Shown piece by piece: positions 1 to 11,404 of a stretch of 15,022 bases of DNA. A program made the position numbers and the translations under genes. Numbering within the stretch: the first letter of the stretch is position 1; each line of letters starts with the position of its first letter. Source of the DNA: Candidatus Hadarchaeales archaeon (GTDB lineage: Archaea; Hadarchaeota; Hadarchaeia; Hadarchaeales; Hadarchaeaceae); assembly GCA_038851565.1 (NCBI GenBank), contig JAWCKV010000023.1:1-15022 (forward strand), read 5' to 3'. The notes below the pieces were generated by a model that saw only the letters and a program-made list of their open reading frames with translations, was not told the origin of the DNA and ran no database searches.

Positions 1-698
1 TATACATTGAAGTGGAAGATGCTTGCGGCCAGCACGGCATCTGCCCGGCCATCTGTTAGGGCCTCAAGGAAGTGCTCAAGCTTCCCTGCGCCGCCGGAGG
101 CTGTGACCGGAATCCTCACGGCATCCCTAATTGCACGCAGACCTTCGATATCATATCCCTGCCTCATACCGTCCGTGTGCACACCCGTGTACAGGATTTC
201 TCCTGCCCCCAGGGATTCTGCACCCTTTGCCCATTCGATCATGTCCATGCCAGTCGGCTGGGTTCCCCCGTTGATGTAGACCTCCCACCCGCCGGCGTTT
301 CTCTTCCCGTCTATCGCGCATATCACACTTTTCGATCCCAGCTCATCGGAAAGCTCTCTAAGGAGATCGGGCCTCTTCACTGCCGCGGTGTTAACGGACA
401 CCTTGTCGGCTCCTGCGTCCATGACCCTCACCGCATCCTCCACGCTCCTTATTCCGCCTCCGACCGAGAGGGGGATGGATATGGCCTCCGAGGCCTTTTT
501 CACCACCTCTATGAAGGTGGGTTTGTTCTCCGGTGTGGCTGTTATGTCCAGGAGCGCGAGCTCGTCAGCCCCGTCGTCCTCGTACTTCGCTGCGAATTTC
601 ACGGGATCTCCCAAGTCCCTCATGTTGCGAAACATGACTCCCTTTACGAGCATGCCGTGCCTGGTGTCGAGACATGGTGTGACGCGCTTGAACATCAT
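1..698 (-). CDS. hisF: Imidazole glycerol phosphate synthase cyclase subunit (3' end runs off the window)
   Basis: Not in the ORF track; translated by hand from ATG at 698, which overlaps the hisB stop (ATGA): MMFKRVTPCLDTRHGMLVKG...GADELALLDITA...VGGGIRS...GADKVSVNTAAV...AIDGK...GAGEILYTGVHTDG...ASGGAG...VLAASIFHF. The HisF motifs and both catalytic Asp positions are present. Confidence 0.96.
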   Translation of the reverse strand, partial: MMFKRVTPCLDTRHGMLVKGVMFRNMRDLGDPVKFAAKYEDDGADELALLDITATPENKPTFIEVVKKASEAISIPLSVGGGIRSVEDAVRVMDAGADKVSVNTAAVKRPDLLRELSDELGSKSVICAIDGKRNAGGWEVYINGGTQPTGMDMIEWAKGAESLGAGEILYTGVHTDGMRQGYDIEGLRAIRDAVRIPVTASGGAGKLEHFLEALTDGRADAVLAASIFHFNV

Positions 699-1270
699 AT
701 CACGCCCTTTGTGCTCGGTATTTCCCCGCTTTTTCTGGACCTTCCGCACGCCTTGGAAAGGGCCACCCCCAGCGCCTTGAATATGGCCTCGGCCTTGTGG
801 TGGTCGTTCTCTCCCCTGAGGACCTCCACATGCAGATTCATCCTGCAGTTAACGGCCAGCGTCTGTAGTAGATGTGCCACGAGATCGGTGCTCAGGTCCT
901 CTATTTTTTTCTTCCAGAACTTGACCTTGATGTCCGCAAAGGCTCTTCCTGAGAGGTCTATTGCGGCCATCACAAGCGCATCGTCCATTGGGACTATGGC
1001 ATCACCCATGCGCGCAATGCCGGCCTTTTTCCCCAGCGCCTCGTCAATGGCCTCGCCCAGCACGATCATGGTATCCTCGGCCACATGGTGGGGAAGGTCT
1101 CCCCTGGAGGTGATCTCTAAGTCAAATGATCCGTGCTTGGCAAACGTTTCTAAAAGGTGGTCCAGGAACTTTATTCCTGTCTCCACCCGGGCCTGCCCAC
1201 TCCCATCGAGGTTTATCCTCACCGTCACGGCGGTTTCCTTGGTTTTTCTGCTCCTCTTAGATGTTCTCAT
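695..1270 (-). CDS. hisB: Imidazoleglycerol-phosphate dehydratase (monofunctional, no phosphatase domain)
   Basis: C-terminal part of track ORF 695..1567. The likely start is ATG 1270, overlapping the hisA stop (ATGA). Motifs: RKTKET, TGIKFLDHLL, HHVAED, PMDDAL, NDHHKAEAIFKA, PSTKG. Confidence 0.97.
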   Translation of the reverse strand: MRTSKRSRKTKETAVTVRINLDGSGQARVETGIKFLDHLLETFAKHGSFDLEITSRGDLPHHVAEDTMIVLGEAIDEALGKKAGIARMGDAIVPMDDALVMAAIDLSGRAFADIKVKFWKKKIEDLSTDLVAHLLQTLAVNCRMNLHVEVLRGENDHHKAEAIFKALGVALSKACGRSRKSGEIPSTKGVI

Positions 1271-1980
1271 GCCTCTGCCACCTCCATCGCCTGTTTTAAT
1301 GTGAACCTTCCCTCGTATAACGCCATCCCCACTATTGCACCCTGCACCCCCACCCTTTTCAGCGCGAGTATGTCGTCCAACCCGCCTATCCCGCCGGATG
1401 CATACACTGGGGTTCTGAGATTTCTCACGAGTTCCCTCACGCTCTCTAGGACCACCCCCTCCATTGTGCCCTCCACGTCCACATTTGTGAACAGAAAGGA
1501 GCCCACCCCCATCCTCTCGAACTCCAGTCCGAGCTCGAGCGGCGTCCTGTTCGATTCCCTTTGCCACCCCTCAATTGTCACCTTTCCGGATCTCGAATCA
1601 AGGGCCACCATCACCCTGTTTCCTCCCGCCTTTTTTACCAGCTCGCGCACCAGTTCTGGGTTTTTAACGGCGGCGGTCCCGATGATCACCCTGTCCGCTC
1701 CCGCCCCCAGTATCTCGTCCGCTCTCTCATAGCTTCTCACTCCTCCTCCCACCTCCACACCAATGCTGACAACCGAGAGTATCTCAACTATCCTCTTGAG
1801 GTTATCTCCCCTGCCCATGGCGGCATCGAGGTCAATCACGTGCAGGTATCTGGCTCCCTTGGCCTCCCACCTCAGTGCCACCTCCACGGGATCGCCGTAT
1901 GTCTTCCCGCTTTCGGGCCTGCCCCCGATTAGCTGCACACATCTTCCCCGCATTAGGTCGATGCTCGGAATCACGATCAA
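1267..1980 (-). CDS. hisA: ProFAR isomerase
   Basis: IPSIDLMRGRCVQL, LHVIDLDAA, VGGGVRS, IIGTAA, VALD, YASGGI, GAIVGMALY; TTG start; his-operon context. Confidence 0.95.
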   Translation of the reverse strand: MIVIPSIDLMRGRCVQLIGGRPESGKTYGDPVEVALRWEAKGARYLHVIDLDAAMGRGDNLKRIVEILSVVSIGVEVGGGVRSYERADEILGAGADRVIIGTAAVKNPELVRELVKKAGGNRVMVALDSRSGKVTIEGWQRESNRTPLELGLEFERMGVGSFLFTNVDVEGTMEGVVLESVRELVRNLRTPVYASGGIGGLDDILALKRVGVQGAIVGMALYEGRFTLKQAMEVAEA

Positions 1981-1990
1981 TCACGACACC

Positions 1991-2857
1991 CTATGGGATT
2001 ATTCGCTCTATTGGCACAACCAGTATGTCCCTGGCTCCTGCTTCTTTGGCCTTTCTTATGACCTCGTAGGTATCCCTCTCGTCAACCACTGCCTGAAGCG
2101 CGAGCATTGGTTCTGCGGCTTCCACGCGGGAAACGGTTGGTCCGGCCATTCCCGGCAGGACCCTCTTCACAATCTCCAGCCTGTCCTCCGGAACATTCAT
2201 GAGCACGAGCTTCTTCCCCCTCGCCATCACAACGCTGCTGAGGGCTGTGACTATCTTCCGTATTTTCTCTCCCTTTTCCTCAAGGCTTTTCCTGTTCGCA
2301 ATCAGGCGCGCTGTGCTCTCCATGATAACGTCAACGATCCTCAGCCCGTGCGCCCTGAGGGTGGTCCCCGTGCTCGTGACGTCCACTATCAGGTCTGCGA
2401 CCCCTATCAGAGGCGAGATCTCCGCTGCCCCGGTTATGCCGACTATCTCTATCTCTATTCCCCTCTGCGAGAAGTACTTCCTCGTGATCCCCGGGAATTC
2501 AGTGGCTACCCTTGATCCCGGCCGTATATCCTTCACAGTTCTTATGTTCGATTTCTCGCTGGCGGCCACAACCATCTTCGTGTAGCCGTATCCGAGGTCT
2601 AGGAGATCAACCACGTCGTCACCGCTTTCACAGACCAGGTCATAGCCGGTTATGCCCAGGTCGGTTGAGCCCTTGGACACAAAGTTCGGTATGTCCTCTG
2701 CCCGAACGAATACCAGCTCCACCTCGGGGTCGTTTGTCCTCGCAAAGAGCTGTCTGCCGTCCCTTCCCATCACCCCTATTCCCGATGCCTGCAGCAGGCC
2801 CACAGTGCTCTCCTCAAGGTGACCCTTTGGAATGGCAATTCTCAGCACCATTTTCAT
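1991..2857 (-). CDS. hisG: ATP phosphoribosyltransferase, long form with C-terminal regulatory domain
   Basis: IAIPKG, VRAEDIP, DLGITGYD, VATEFP, GAAEISP..G.ADLIVDVTSTGTTLRAHGL, and C-terminal PGM.GPTV...GARDILVVPIE. The start overlaps the hisC stop (ATGA). Confidence 0.97.
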   Translation of the reverse strand: MKMVLRIAIPKGHLEESTVGLLQASGIGVMGRDGRQLFARTNDPEVELVFVRAEDIPNFVSKGSTDLGITGYDLVCESGDDVVDLLDLGYGYTKMVVAASEKSNIRTVKDIRPGSRVATEFPGITRKYFSQRGIEIEIVGITGAAEISPLIGVADLIVDVTSTGTTLRAHGLRIVDVIMESTARLIANRKSLEEKGEKIRKIVTALSSVVMARGKKLVLMNVPEDRLEIVKRVLPGMAGPTVSRVEAAEPMLALQAVVDERDTYEVIRKAKEAGARDILVVPIERIIP

Positions 2858-3927
2858 CCCTCCTTCACTTTTTTTATCGCGCTAACGAGAGCAGAGTTCT
2901 GGCGCGGCGTCCCCACGGTGATCCTCACCCACTCCGGGCCAGCGCCCTTGAAGTCTGCCAGTTCTCTTATCATTATCCCCCTCCCCGCAAGATAGCTGCA
3001 CAGCTCTCTCCCATCCATGCCTGATGCCTGAGCGTTTACCATCAGGAAGTTACCCCTGGACTGAAGGACAGTGAAGCCCATGCCCTCCAGCTCCTTTTTC
3101 AACCATTCACGCCCCATCTTTATCTTGGTCACCACATATTTCAGGTATTTCCTATCCCTCAGTGCCTCAGCCGCAGCAGCCTGCGCCATCCTGTTCAGGT
3201 TGAAGGGGGCCCTTATCACATTGATGGCCTCAATGAGCTCTGGGTCGCCCACGGCGTATCCCACCCTCAGCCCAGCGAGACCAAACGCCTTTGAGAGCGT
3301 CCTGAGAACGAGCAGGTTTTTGTATCTCCCTACAAGCGGGACCACCGACTCACCGTCAAATTCTACGTATGCCTCGTCGACGATCAGGAGTCTTCCGGTC
3401 TTCAGAAGCTCTTCGACCTCTGCAACCGAGAGCATGTTCCCTGTCGGGTTGTTTGGGCGTCCGATAAATGCGGCCTTGACCCCCTCAAGCTTCTTTTTCA
3501 TGGCTTCAACCTGCCAGGTGAATCCGGGGAGCACGAAGAACTCCGGCTCTCCCCCGTTGGCCCTGCAGGAAATTTCGTACATGGCAAAGGTTGGAATCGA
3601 GATCAGGACTTTATCACCCGGATCCAGAAATGCCCTGCAGGCCAAGTCCATCAGCTCATCAGATCCGTTTCCCAGAACTATGCATCTCTCATCCACCCCA
3701 ACGTATGCCGATATCTCCCTTTTGAGTTCCTTGGAGTCAGGGTCCGGATAAGTTCCTATTCTCCTCATTTCTTTTCTCAAAGCCGCAATTGCCCTCGGCG
3801 AGGGTCCGTAAGGGTTCTCATTTGAGGCCAGGTTTATGATTCCTGTCCCGACGTTGTACTCCCTCGCGAGGGGATATGAGACCCTCTCCTCCAGTATCTT
3901 TCTAACTTTTTTCGATATCATGTTCAT
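2854..3927 (-). CDS. hisC: Histidinol-phosphate aminotransferase (PLP-dependent)
   Basis: LASNENPYG, GNGSDE, PNNPTG, VDEAY, and the PLP-lysine motif RTLSKAFGLAGLRVGY. Start trimmed to ATG 3927, which overlaps the upstream stop (ATGA) and follows GGTGG. Confidence 0.93.
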   Translation of the reverse strand: MNMISKKVRKILEERVSYPLAREYNVGTGIINLASNENPYGPSPRAIAALRKEMRRIGTYPDPDSKELKREISAYVGVDERCIVLGNGSDELMDLACRAFLDPGDKVLISIPTFAMYEISCRANGGEPEFFVLPGFTWQVEAMKKKLEGVKAAFIGRPNNPTGNMLSVAEVEELLKTGRLLIVDEAYVEFDGESVVPLVGRYKNLLVLRTLSKAFGLAGLRVGYAVGDPELIEAINVIRAPFNLNRMAQAAAAEALRDRKYLKYVVTKIKMGREWLKKELEGMGFTVLQSRGNFLMVNAQASGMDGRELCSYLAGRGIMIRELADFKGAGPEWVRITVGTPRQNSALVSAIKKVKEG

Positions 3928-4877
3928 CCACCAGATCCCAAGTATTTTCTCCATTCACCGCTTCTCTGGAAGGCAAGTTCGCTGGGCAGCCCGGCTTTTC
4001 TGAGTATCTCATCGGCCTCCTCTATCGTCTTTGTGTTCACAAGTTCTCTCGCTATGCCGTTCACCTTTTCAAACACAACAAATGGATCAAGGTAGAACGT
4101 GATGGCGGAGAAAGGGGTGATCAGGGCCTTCCTGTATCCCCCCCGTATCGGTATCAAACCTCTCAATCCCTTCGCTGCCTTTACCGCGAGCGCGCTCGAC
4201 TCGGTTTTAGTTGCAGGGATTACCCTCTCCAGCATGTCTATGTCCTCCGGGGTCAGCCCCCTCGCCCCAAGGAGCCCCCCGTATTCCGCCACAGCGGACA
4301 GGCGTTCAGTGAACTGCTCTAACGTGAGTTCTCCGTCAGTGCAGCACCCGAGTACCCCCAGGATGCTAGGGATATCAATCTTAACCATAGAGGCCAGCAT
4401 CATGCTGTCCGCCAGCATGCTCCTCAATCCCTCTTCTTTACCTGTTGCCAGAACGTCGCCTCCTGTGTCCACGCCCACAAAGAGATCCACCCCCATCTTC
4501 CCCGCCGCGGCGTTTATTCCCTTGACCAGACCCCTCACCCCCTGATTTGGATCTATGAGCAGCACATCCTCCCTGATGACCTCTGCCACCGCTGATTCCG
4601 TGAACCTCACACCTTTGACGGTTCTTGTTGAAGGATTTGCGATCCCCACGGTGTCCGATATCCGGGTTATGTTGACTATCTCGTCCATCCTCCTGGGGCC
4701 TGGCTCTGGGTCATTTACATAGCGTTCCCATGTCAGCCCCCCGAGGACTGTCTCGCAGCCCAGCATCCTCAGGTAGTTGGAGGTGGGGATGGCTCCCACC
4801 ACATCTCCACCTCCCCCTATGCCAACCACCATCGCCTTCTTCGATCTTTTTGCAACCGACTCCAGGGAACCTCTCAT
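3924..4877 (-). CDS. DUF1152-like protein of unknown function (317 aa)
   Basis: GIGGGGDVVG, TWER...DP.PGPR, VDTGGDVLA.G.E.GLRS.LADS and DGEL resemble the DUF1152 family. Start trimmed to ATG 4877 because the track's extension is just the AT-rich intergenic region. Confidence 0.8.
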   Translation of the reverse strand: MRGSLESVAKRSKKAMVVGIGGGGDVVGAIPTSNYLRMLGCETVLGGLTWERYVNDPEPGPRRMDEIVNITRISDTVGIANPSTRTVKGVRFTESAVAEVIREDVLLIDPNQGVRGLVKGINAAAGKMGVDLFVGVDTGGDVLATGKEEGLRSMLADSMMLASMVKIDIPSILGVLGCCTDGELTLEQFTERLSAVAEYGGLLGARGLTPEDIDMLERVIPATKTESSALAVKAAKGLRGLIPIRGGYRKALITPFSAITFYLDPFVVFEKVNGIARELVNTKTIEEADEILRKAGLPSELAFQRSGEWRKYLGSGG

Positions 4878-4904
4878 GACATCCCTTTGATAAATACAAT
4901 GATT

Positions 4905-4985
4905 TTTGTATATAAATTTTATCAAAAAATAAATTTTGTAAATTTTATTTACAAATAACAGAAAAGTATAAATTATGTTTACAGA
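4905..4985. promoter_or_regulatory. Divergent promoter region with a palindromic operator and flanking related boxes
   Basis: Perfect inverted repeat TTTGTAAAT-TTT-ATTTACAAA at 4935-4955. Minus-strand TATA TTTATATA at 4916-4909. Plus-strand purine-rich BRE-like CAGAAAAG plus TATAAA at 4959-4972. Strongly AT-rich against GC-richer flanks. Confidence 0.75.
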
Positions 4986-5008
4986 ATATTGAGTTGGGGG
5001 GTACAAAG

Positions 5009-5476
5009 GTGAAGCCCGGAGTAAAAAATGTTCAACTTGACGAAATCGACAGGGGCATTCTGAACATGCTCCAGGACGATGCGAAGCTCTCCTATGCGGT
5101 TGTGGCGAAGCGATTGGGGATAAGCCCTTCCGGCGTTCACAAGCGCATTAGGCGTCTGATGGAAGCCGGTGTCATAAAAAAGTTCGTAGTCGCCATAGAT
5201 CCCTCGATCTCAGGAAAGAGGCTCAAGGCCTTTATTGGTATCTCCACACTGCCCGGTACGTGCGGCGAGGTCATCTCCAGGCTTTCACAGAGAAATGAGG
5301 TGATGGAAATTCATGAAGTTGCTGGGGAGCATGATCTCTTCGTGAAGATAGTGGTTGAGGACACTCTGAAGCTCAATGACATCCTTCACGAGATGGACAG
5401 AATTCCGGGCGTGAGCAGCACGCGCACGCTGGTCGTGCTGAAGACGGAGAAGGAAACTGGAAAGATTCAGCTCTAA
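5009..5476 (+). CDS. Lrp/AsnC family transcriptional regulator
   Basis: N-terminal HTH LDEIDRGILNMLQDDAKLSY..VAKRLGIS...VHKRIRRL...GVI and RAM domain ..EIHEVAGEHDL...IPGVSSTRT. Start is probably GTG 5009 after a G-run; TTG 4994 is the alternative. Confidence 0.95.
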   Translation: MKPGVKNVQLDEIDRGILNMLQDDAKLSYAVVAKRLGISPSGVHKRIRRLMEAGVIKKFVVAIDPSISGKRLKAFIGISTLPGTCGEVISRLSQRNEVMEIHEVAGEHDLFVKIVVEDTLKLNDILHEMDRIPGVSSTRTLVVLKTEKETGKIQL

Positions 5477-10129: not shown

Positions 10130-11404
10130 TCAGCCCGAATATCCGATATTGGCTCCCAGTGATTTGAAGGTGGACACGAATTTTGAATATGCGGCCCCGA
10201 TGGCGTCAGCACCTCCCTTTATCAAGGTTTTGCCCTCTGCCCCAAGCCCGGCTACAGTTAGGGCGGCTGCCACTGCGTGGTCCCCCTGCCCGTCCACTTG
10301 GCAGCCTTTTAATTTGCACGGCCCCTTCACTACTATTGAGTCCCCCGCGTCAAGTGCGCTGGCGCCCATCCTCTTCAGTTCGCGCAATATCACTGCAACG
10401 CGGTCGGTTCTCATCCCTCTGGCTTCCGAGGCCCCCTCGATTCTTGTGGTCCCTTTTGCATAGCAGGAGAGAACGGCAATGAACGGGAACAGCTCAGGTG
10501 CCCACGAGATGTCCACCCTCGTGCCTTTCAGAGACCCGCCCTCCACTCTGAGCCAGTTGCCCTTATATCTGATTTTCATTCCAAACGCCCGCAGCGTGTG
10601 TATGAGAAGTTCATCCCTTTCGGAGAAAATCTTGCCCGATTTTACCATGAGCCTTGACCCGGATATGCCGGAGGCGACCAAAAAGGCAATCGTGGAGCAC
10701 AGGTCCTTGGGAATCCTGTAAGTGGCTGCCCTGTAACCTCCCGGCTGAATCGAAATGCCAGACGAACCCTGCCTTACCGTACACCCAGCCCTTTTCATCA
10801 ACTCGAGCATGCTCTTCACGGGGAACATGAATTTATCGTGCCTCAGGAGGAGACAGGCTTTCCTCTGAGAAAATGGAGCTGCGAGAAGCGCGGGTGGGAT
10901 AAATCTGTGTGGAATGTCCCTGAGGTTTATCCTTCCGCCGGACAGGGTTCCACCGAAGTTCATAAAGGGGGGGCTTTCCTCCGGGTTTGCGGAGTGGATT
11001 TTGATGCCGATCCTCCTGAGGGATTCCAGAAGTTCGGGCATGGGACGCCTGCACAGGTTGTGATCTCCCGTTATCACCATCGGCATCTTGGAAAAAGTGG
11101 CAACAGCGCTCATGATGGAGATGGCGGTTTCAGATCCCTTCAGGTCGAGGGCAGGCTGCACCGGCGTGAATCCCCTCTCAACCCCCCAAATCGACCATCT
11201 CCCCTGCGACCTCTTCAGGATGCATCCAATTGTTTCGCAGGCCTTGGCCAGCACAGATGTATCCCTTGAGACAAGCGGCGATTCCAAAACGCTCTTGTTG
11301 GGACAGAGCGATGCCAGCGCGCATGAGAGGAGTGTTAGGTATTTCGACGGCTGGGGCTCTATTTCCCCCTCTATCGTGGAGGATTGGCTTACCACGATGT
11401 CCAA
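10130..11404 (-). CDS. AroA/EPSP-synthase-like protein with a degenerate active site
   Basis: Full length (424 aa) and collinear with EPSPS (PSK, S.DT, RRPM, TDR, GDH), but most substrate-binding and catalytic residues are substituted. TTG start with a GGGTGAG ribosome-binding site at 11415-11409. Confidence 0.85.
   Translation of the reverse strand: MDIVVSQSSTIEGEIEPQPSKYLTLLSCALASLCPNKSVLESPLVSRDTSVLAKACETIGCILKRSQGRWSIWGVERGFTPVQPALDLKGSETAISIMSAVATFSKMPMVITGDHNLCRRPMPELLESLRRIGIKIHSANPEESPPFMNFGGTLSGGRINLRDIPHRFIPPALLAAPFSQRKACLLLRHDKFMFPVKSMLELMKRAGCTVRQGSSGISIQPGGYRAATYRIPKDLCSTIAFLVASGISGSRLMVKSGKIFSERDELLIHTLRAFGMKIRYKGNWLRVEGGSLKGTRVDISWAPELFPFIAVLSCYAKGTTRIEGASEARGMRTDRVAVILRELKRMGASALDAGDSIVVKGPCKLKGCQVDGQGDHAVAAALTVAGLGAEGKTLIKGGADAIGAAYSKFVSTFKSLGANIGYSG

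Follow-up and report, generated by a model that had tools for sequence, protein, structure and literature searches.

Why does a DUF1152 gene stand at the head of a histidine operon, and does it serve a step of the pathway? The question is raised by contig JAWCKV010000023.1 of a Candidatus Hadarchaeales archaeon, whose assembly (here genome G000) is 87% complete and 0.82 Mb in size; the window analysed is this entire 15-kb contig (15,022 nt), and the named proteins most closely related to it come from Hadarchaeota. A sequence-only reading of the window had placed the gene first in the operon, behind its promoter and coupled to hisC, and had proposed that it may encode a metal-dependent hydrolase that fills a missing step such as histidinol-phosphate (Hol-P) phosphatase, salvages a histidine derivative or repairs a pathway metabolite. 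We find that DUF1152 is a conserved but dispensable first gene of an Lrp-linked his operon, as its position, promoter and junctions, its deletion from some relatives and its retention in others attest. It did not behave as a required histidine enzyme, since neither its presence nor its loss is tied to the pathway.

The DUF1152 gene and its operon

The minus-strand genes follow one another in the order DUF1152 (4877-3924), hisC, hisG, hisA, hisB and hisF. The first is a 317-aa open reading frame (ORF) that matches PF06626 over 290 residues (E 2.5e-87, Pfam hidden Markov model, HMM), scoring 293 bits against a gathering cut-off of 27 and covering positions 1-292 of the 295 in the model. The family assignment made from sequence is thereby confirmed over nearly the full model, and the motifs GGGGD, DTGGD, LADS and DGE that accompanied it are all present. 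The features of the operon and of its divergent neighbour are as follows.

3924..4877, minus strand: DUF1152, which opens the operon and encodes 317 aa (Pfam match; predicted LmbE-like alpha/beta fold, Asp/Glu cluster, no His)
4909..4923, minus strand: operon promoter with transcription factor B recognition element (BRE) and TATA box, 32 nt 5' of the DUF1152 ATG (sequence pattern)
4880..4887, minus strand: purine-rich, Shine-Dalgarno-like stretch 5' of the DUF1152 start (sequence; putative function)
2854..3927, minus strand: hisC, histidinol-phosphate transaminase (TIGR01141 over cut-off)
1991..2857, minus strand: hisG, ATP phosphoribosyltransferase, long form (HMM matches)
1267..1980, minus strand: hisA (HMM match)
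695..1270, minus strand: hisB, monofunctional imidazoleglycerol-phosphate dehydratase (HMM matches)
3..698, minus strand: hisF, operon-embedded type, truncated by the contig end (HMM match and comparison with relatives)
5009..5476, plus strand: divergent Lrp/AsnC-family regulator, alternative start TTG at 4994 (HMM match, neighbourhood comparison)
4938..4952, no strand: inverted repeat of 15 bp, centred on three A residues and lying between the divergent promoters, candidate Lrp site (sequence; putative role)
4961..4972, plus strand: candidate BRE/TATA of the divergent lrp (sequence)

The TATA box, TTTATATA at 4916-4909, lies 32 nt 5' of the DUF1152 ATG and is preceded by a BRE-like GATAAAA, so that the gene is indeed the first behind the operon's promoter. 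Inspection of the 174 nt 5' of hisC revealed no TATA-like word. ATGA overlaps occur at four of the five junctions (DUF1152/hisC at 3927-3924, hisC/hisG, hisA/hisB and hisB/hisF), as had been described, and hisG/hisA is joined without overlap. One refinement concerns hisC, where another ATG lies in frame at 3921; the HisC consensus of relatives begins MISKR, and the true start may therefore fall 2 nt after the DUF1152 stop rather than overlap it, either spacing being within coupling range. With a -4 overlap or very short spacing the pair falls within a sequence criterion for coupling taken from PMC10666635, which describes short spacing as needed for termination-reinitiation. We infer that DUF1152 is co-transcribed with hisC and translationally coupled to it. 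HMM matches also bear out that HisB is the monofunctional dehydratase.

The inverted repeat at 4938-4952 is a candidate Lrp site on account of the architecture of such sites. Relatives carry similar AT-centred repeats between the lrp and operon promoters, and lrp remains with the his genes where DUF1152 has been deleted; the divergent Lrp is likely a histidine-responsive regulator. Elsewhere in G000, contig C28 begins with hisE and hisI followed by a SpoIIM-family membrane gene (L064:740-1564). No match to hisD was found in this 87%-complete assembly, and from the gene order of relatives hisD presumably lies in the gap between contigs. Farther along the window an AMP phosphorylase gene (TIGR03327, 5519-7054) follows lrp, as it does in a few relatives, some of them without DUF1152, and a divergent-looking EPSP-synthase-family gene (PF00275) occupies 10130-11404.

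Linkage, loss and retention in relatives

PF06626 is present in 33 of the 61 genomes searched. It lies directly before hisC in 15 of them and before a PHP gene in eight (in seven of these hisC follows within the contig), stands as lrp-DUF1152 at a contig end in three, and is unlinked in seven. The linkage to his genes is thus recurrent and not unique to this genome, with 23 of the 33 DUF1152 relatives having the gene before hisC or PHP. These linked loci usually lie opposite an Lrp regulator, beyond which the genes vary freely. Among 30 loci examined, the promoter pattern was seen at 21 of the 23 his/Lrp-linked ones and at none of the seven unlinked ones; in metagenomes the lrp-DUF1152 layout appears at 6 of 80 loci, with PHP next in five. 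His-linked DUF1152 has been maintained in two families directly, and probably in a third, with copies 45-70% identical.

Linked copies are poor in histidine: His makes up 0.26% of residues in 24 of them. For comparison, six copies from a genus (g11) described below reach 1.07%, 39 copies from other archaea 0.72% and the long ORFs of G000 1.83%, the related copies not being independent. The DUF1152 protein of G000 contains no His at all. A protein synthesised when histidine is scarce would be expected to contain little of it. DUF1152 is also fused in frame to HisC in three sequences (P0121, P0271 and P0278; 680 aa, L026:379-2418). A single cluster at 90% identity holds three fused and two split forms, and what separates the fused G021 from the unfused G030 is a 3-nt insertion and a single A within a poly-A run; the fusion is recent and weak as evidence.

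The gene can be lost from an otherwise continuous operon. Seven operons (G006, G008, G015, G022, G027, G031 and G034) lack both DUF1152 and PHP between the promoter and hisC, and although the metagenome-assembled genomes are incomplete, these deletions are visible at the promoter-hisC junction itself. G006 has a clean deletion, and the other six retain a mini-ORF remnant; that of G027 joins nt 1-110 of DUF1152 to nt 898-966 (E 7e-24 and 1.5e-7). All six remnants are open frames of 17-58 codons ending at the hisC start (L045:4770-4950, L035, L076, L077, L032 and L033), four by an ATGA overlap and two by TAA plus 3 nt. Because six of the seven operons keep a short ORF ending there, the pattern suggests that the reading frame, not the protein, is preserved. 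We considered the mini-ORFs as His-sensing leaders and rejected this, as none has a His codon in frame.

The converse case, retention of the gene without the pathway, is provided by genus g11. DUF1152 occurs in all six of its genomes, and hisG, hisF and hisH in only one, G032, which has a differently ordered his cluster (L047) that is no more than 33-41% identical and was probably regained through transfer. The other five genomes have no hisI (0 of 5), and their best Lrp match, at 37%, is not a close orthologue. Here DUF1152 adjoins the SpoIIM-like gene that in ten relatives ends the operon after hisI, an arrangement suggesting that the stretch from hisC to hisI was lost by internal deletion. 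The g11 copies form one clade (support 96/93) with ordinary branch lengths and all motifs intact. Their ratios of nonsynonymous to synonymous substitution (0.045-0.118, 13 of 15 pairs estimable), compared with 0.051-0.139 in 12 linked pairs, indicate that DUF1152 is under purifying selection in this his-less genus. As a separate observation, a divergent hisD-like gene (41% identity) and a hisB-like gene (28-35%) form a pair in some his-less g11 genomes beside a short-chain dehydrogenase/reductase and an ABC transporter (L218:2451-9568, L219:1999-10982), perhaps a catabolic pathway using his paralogues.

Presence and absence across genomes tell the same story. No match to DUF1152 is found in 22 of 48 hisG-positive relatives, and seven of nine hisG-negative relatives have one. 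Across the phylum to which G059 belongs, sampled with 301 genomes, hisB accompanies DUF1152 in 64 of 82 genomes (78%) and occurs in 173 of the 219 without it (79%). Beyond the order, 39 archaeal loci were inspected with flanks of 1.5 kb (30 of 82 matches in one set, 9 of 9 in the other), and a single one has hisB nearby, divergently oriented; of 73 other metagenome loci, three carry hisI-hisG, again divergent, on the far side of cutA and a NUDIX gene.

A better candidate for the phosphatase step stands in the same slot of other operons. The PHP gene there scores far over the cut-off for NF004981 ('histidinol phosphate phosphatase domain-containing protein', PRK06361) and immediately precedes hisC in at least 13 relatives, whether or not DUF1152 is present (e.g. 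L005:2424-3077, L036:4507-5154); the window has no PHP gene at that place. The set of two methanogen-type control genomes also has PRK06361 PHP over cut-off, and from its annotation and position we regard the operon gene as a strong candidate for an archaeal Hol-P phosphatase. Among the 48 hisG-positive genomes, nine have both DUF1152 and PHP, 17 DUF1152 only (one being G032, with its unrelated-looking his cluster), 10 PHP only and 12 neither (Fisher p 0.56), so there is no complementarity between the two.

In G000, at 87% completeness, we found no inositol monophosphatase (IMPase), no PRK06361 PHP and no TIGR01656 over cut-off. There are one unrelated PHP protein and about nine HAD hydrolases, of which a Cof-type protein lacks, by eye, the Tyr-Asp fingerprint of nmHisN as given in PMC10804674. 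The same source reports Hol-P phosphatase as unannotated in two thirds of histidine-making archaea. The gap recognised from sequence is real, but it can be filled without DUF1152, because operons exist that lack both DUF1152 and PHP, and the HAD hydrolases could serve. The proposal that DUF1152 fills a required histidine step is not supported: it co-occurs with PHP, is deleted from intact PHP-less operons, is retained without hisG, hisF, hisH and hisI, and has no association with hisB. The alternatives raised alongside that proposal, salvage and metabolite repair, fit better.

Two HisF types were seen in passing, a lower-scoring operon-embedded one and a higher-scoring one mostly beside hisH (L032:8101-8853 and L065:1449-2201, respectively). 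Thirteen genomes, including G000, have the operon-embedded type only and no hisH match, and seven have both. The ADKV of hisH-linked HisF is ASKV in four of seven operon-type sequences and ATRV in one; six of the seven lack the Asp, which G000 keeps and which probably corresponds to fD98. The latter contacts HisH, according to PMC8115485. It is possible that operon-type HisF uses ammonia independently of HisH. DUF1152 was considered as a substitute for HisH and rejected, since it occurs both with and without hisH.

Conserved residues and predicted fold

Across 116 diverse homologues D25, D137, G139 and D181 are invariant and W50, D141, S153, D157, E183 and E300 nearly so, and no His is conserved. 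The predicted structure is confident (predicted local distance difference test 93.5, predicted template modelling score 0.92). In a fold search of 48,161 chains the top seven matches were all LmbE/PIG-L proteins (Z 8.0-9.8, root-mean-square deviation 3.4-4.1 A over 175-193 residues), the next reaching Z 6.6; a second comparison agreed, with Z up to 10.1, such values being middling. Most of the conserved residues lie where a strand ends or where the next helix begins, and from these positions D25, D137, D141, D157, D181 and E183 likely cluster into a shared metal site. Of the suggestion of a metal-dependent hydrolase, a predicted Asp cluster is supported by the fold model and by conservation, but the LmbE zinc motifs are absent.

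A profile alignment with LmbE placed 100 columns in register, with HPDD opposite GGGGD, at an hhalign probability of 6.7% and a pairwise E of 0.005. Sequence searches of the PDB, made both with the protein itself and with the 116-sequence profile, gave no significant match, and Foldseek none at E 0.001 or better; its weak TcdA/E1-like and TilS-like matches led us to drop a PP-loop or adenylation reading. HAD, IMPase, PHP and inosine-uridine nucleoside hydrolase (IU-NH) structures were not among the fold matches listed, a result that leaves room for such a fold. Pfam returned only PF06626 and NCBIfam nothing, hence no match to the HAD, PHP or Inositol_P families of Hol-P phosphatases, and the DUF1152 profile aligned with PHP at 3.6% probability over 21 columns. 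Nucleoside and nucleotide N-ribohydrolases (IU-NH, LOG/PpnN) likewise gave no Pfam or PDB sequence match, so that the proposal made below concerns a protein that would work like them, not one that belongs to them.

Candidate functions and known systems

The family is widespread, with 1,411 clusters at 50% identity and a single gene in the control Sulfolobus acidocaldarius, and some of its contexts have a nucleotide-recycling flavour. A NUDIX gene lies directly upstream at 5 of 80 metagenome loci, an HD/YfbR-like gene is found upstream in Halostella, and on a Halalkalicoccus plasmid (L223:5478-11220) NUDIX-DUF1152 sits amid genes for NAD kinase, a metallo-beta-lactamase-fold hydrolase, nicotinate phosphoribosyltransferase, an isochorismatase-family protein and a macro-domain protein. 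Searches for longer forms, weak by design, found only three fusions. Fusion partners seen in the family include a class II aldolase, a SIR2-like domain and, in one case, a penicillin-amidase domain. A second copy in G005 lies beside arginase-family and amidohydrolase genes, but a hut cluster was rejected: these neighbours are convergent, and their best matches, which are agmatinase-like and dihydropyrimidinase-like, fall short of the cut-off. Viral and phage relatives were searched for and none was found, and a scan of genome contigs gave one locus only. We found no published work on DUF1152/PF06626, a family that subscription papers and supplementary tables, outside the search, could list; papers on Hadarchaeota and histidine, judged by title and abstract start, included none about this operon.

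We tentatively favour, at somewhat less than even confidence, the reading that DUF1152 is a metal hydrolase, co-regulated with the operon yet dispensable, which likely acts on N-ribosyl or N-ribosyl-phosphate metabolites and does not carry out a required histidine step. On an LmbE-like fold, the His zinc ligands would be replaced by Asp and Glu at strand C-termini, and this site would bind Mg, Mn or Ca together with a ribose diol or phosphate. The protein would be expressed with the pathway under histidine limitation, its frame would deliver ribosomes to hisC, and it would clear or recycle a general nucleoside or nucleotide substrate, here phosphoribosyl-ATP (PR-ATP), phosphoribosyl-AMP (PR-AMP) or ribotides of the aminoimidazole-carboxamide (AICAR) type piling up at high flux. 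Nucleoside hydrolases use an Asp-rich site with Ca or Mg to bind the ribose diol, and early histidine intermediates are N-phosphoribosyl compounds. We favour this chemistry because an Asp-only site suits a ribose diol, because of the nature of those intermediates and because some contexts suggest nucleotide recycling; most sampled neighbours have no such theme, and the substrate is therefore put forward as a hypothesis.

Several points weigh against it. No nucleoside hydrolase structure backs the chemistry, the nearest folds being amide hydrolases and a hydratase. The five NUDIX loci are one clade and the contexts were chosen after the fact; two of the three annotated plasmid loci lack the recycling theme, and the neighbours in archaea are for the most part housekeeping genes with no relation to it. 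Depletion of His would arise in any first gene of this operon. The g11 genus represents one loss event, and divergent hisB-like and hisD-like genes occur elsewhere in three and two, respectively, of five g11 genomes. Finally, the HisC fusion and the lack of a known phosphatase in the 15 DUF1152-hisC operons fit a phosphatase better.

That phosphatase, a Hol-P enzyme of new fold redundant with PHP or with broad HAD phosphatases, would adjoin the gene whose product supplies its substrate and is fused to it in three sequences. Its Asp cluster would suit Mg-dependent chemistry, and G000 and the 15 PHP-less operons show none of the recognised enzymes, in keeping with the many archaea whose HolPase lacks annotation (PMC10804674). 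We nevertheless consider it quite unlikely, given the missing complementarity with PHP, the intact operons without either gene, the retention of DUF1152 without a pathway, the polymorphic fusion (three fused, two split; one A and a 3-nt insertion between G021 and G030) and some nine HAD hydrolases at hand. An amidohydrolase that cuts N-acyl or peptide derivatives to free histidine or an imidazole, perhaps together with the SpoIIM-like membrane protein, would help prototrophs when starved and auxotrophs always. The seven best structural matches, mostly N-deacetylases, speak for it, as do the in-register alignment of HPDD with GGGGD, the penicillin-amidase fusion and retention in g11 beside the SpoIIM-like gene, just as it predicts. 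The LmbE His ligands are absent all the same, the profile probability is just 6.7%, loci sampled outside the order have no histidine-related neighbours and the SpoIIM-like gene is kept even by operons that have lost DUF1152; we hold this salvage role to be unlikely.

It is also conceivable, if somewhat unlikely, that DUF1152 is a passenger with a general, non-histidine function, captured behind the his promoter in the ancestor of the order, its slot mattering only for the hand-over of ribosomes to hisC. The six remnants ending at the hisC start fit this, as do the rarity of his genes at outside loci (1 of 39 and 3 of 73, all divergent) and the missing association with hisB in 301 genomes. Against this, the link has been kept in two families, and probably a third, at 45-70% identity while outer flanks changed, and the clean deletion in G006 manages without a leader ORF.

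Whichever holds, finding any substrate for DUF1152 would annotate many archaeal and bacterial genomes, and the operon narrows the candidates, with the deletions, the his-less genus and the HisC fusion as natural controls. A bolder prospect, which we judge rather unlikely, is a new class of Asp-cluster enzyme, built on a scaffold like that of LmbE and acting on a metabolite of the histidine pathway, either as a fifth unrelated type of Hol-P phosphatase or as a safety valve for PR-ATP, PR-AMP or AICAR ribotide, in an Lrp-controlled operon that in several lineages has HisF without hisH.

Among known systems, the rest of PF06626 is closest: the match is full-length, all motifs are shared and the nearest ESM Atlas clusters are all DUF1152. 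Sampled copies elsewhere have variable neighbours, whereas in this order the gene heads the Lrp-linked his operon. The known Hol-P phosphatases (HAD HisB-N, toHisN, nmHisN and paHisN; PHP HisK/HisJ; IMPase-like HisN) share with it an acidic, putative metal site, and nmHisN shares, according to PMC10804674, a genomic position beside hisC. They differ in that DUF1152 has no match to their HMMs and is not tied to the pathway, and PHP fills the expected slot in many relatives. With LmbE/PIG-L proteins (3dfi, Dbv21; 3we7, diacetylchitobiose deacetylase; 2ixd, BC1534; 1q7t, MshB; 5cgz, GalB) it appears to share an alpha/beta fold, at Z 8.0-10.1, 3.4-4.1 A over 175-195 residues and 7-14% identity, and the position of their first catalytic Asp aligns with D25; where 11 PIG-L proteins without exception have the HxDD and DH zinc motifs, DUF1152 has GGGGD and SxLxD.

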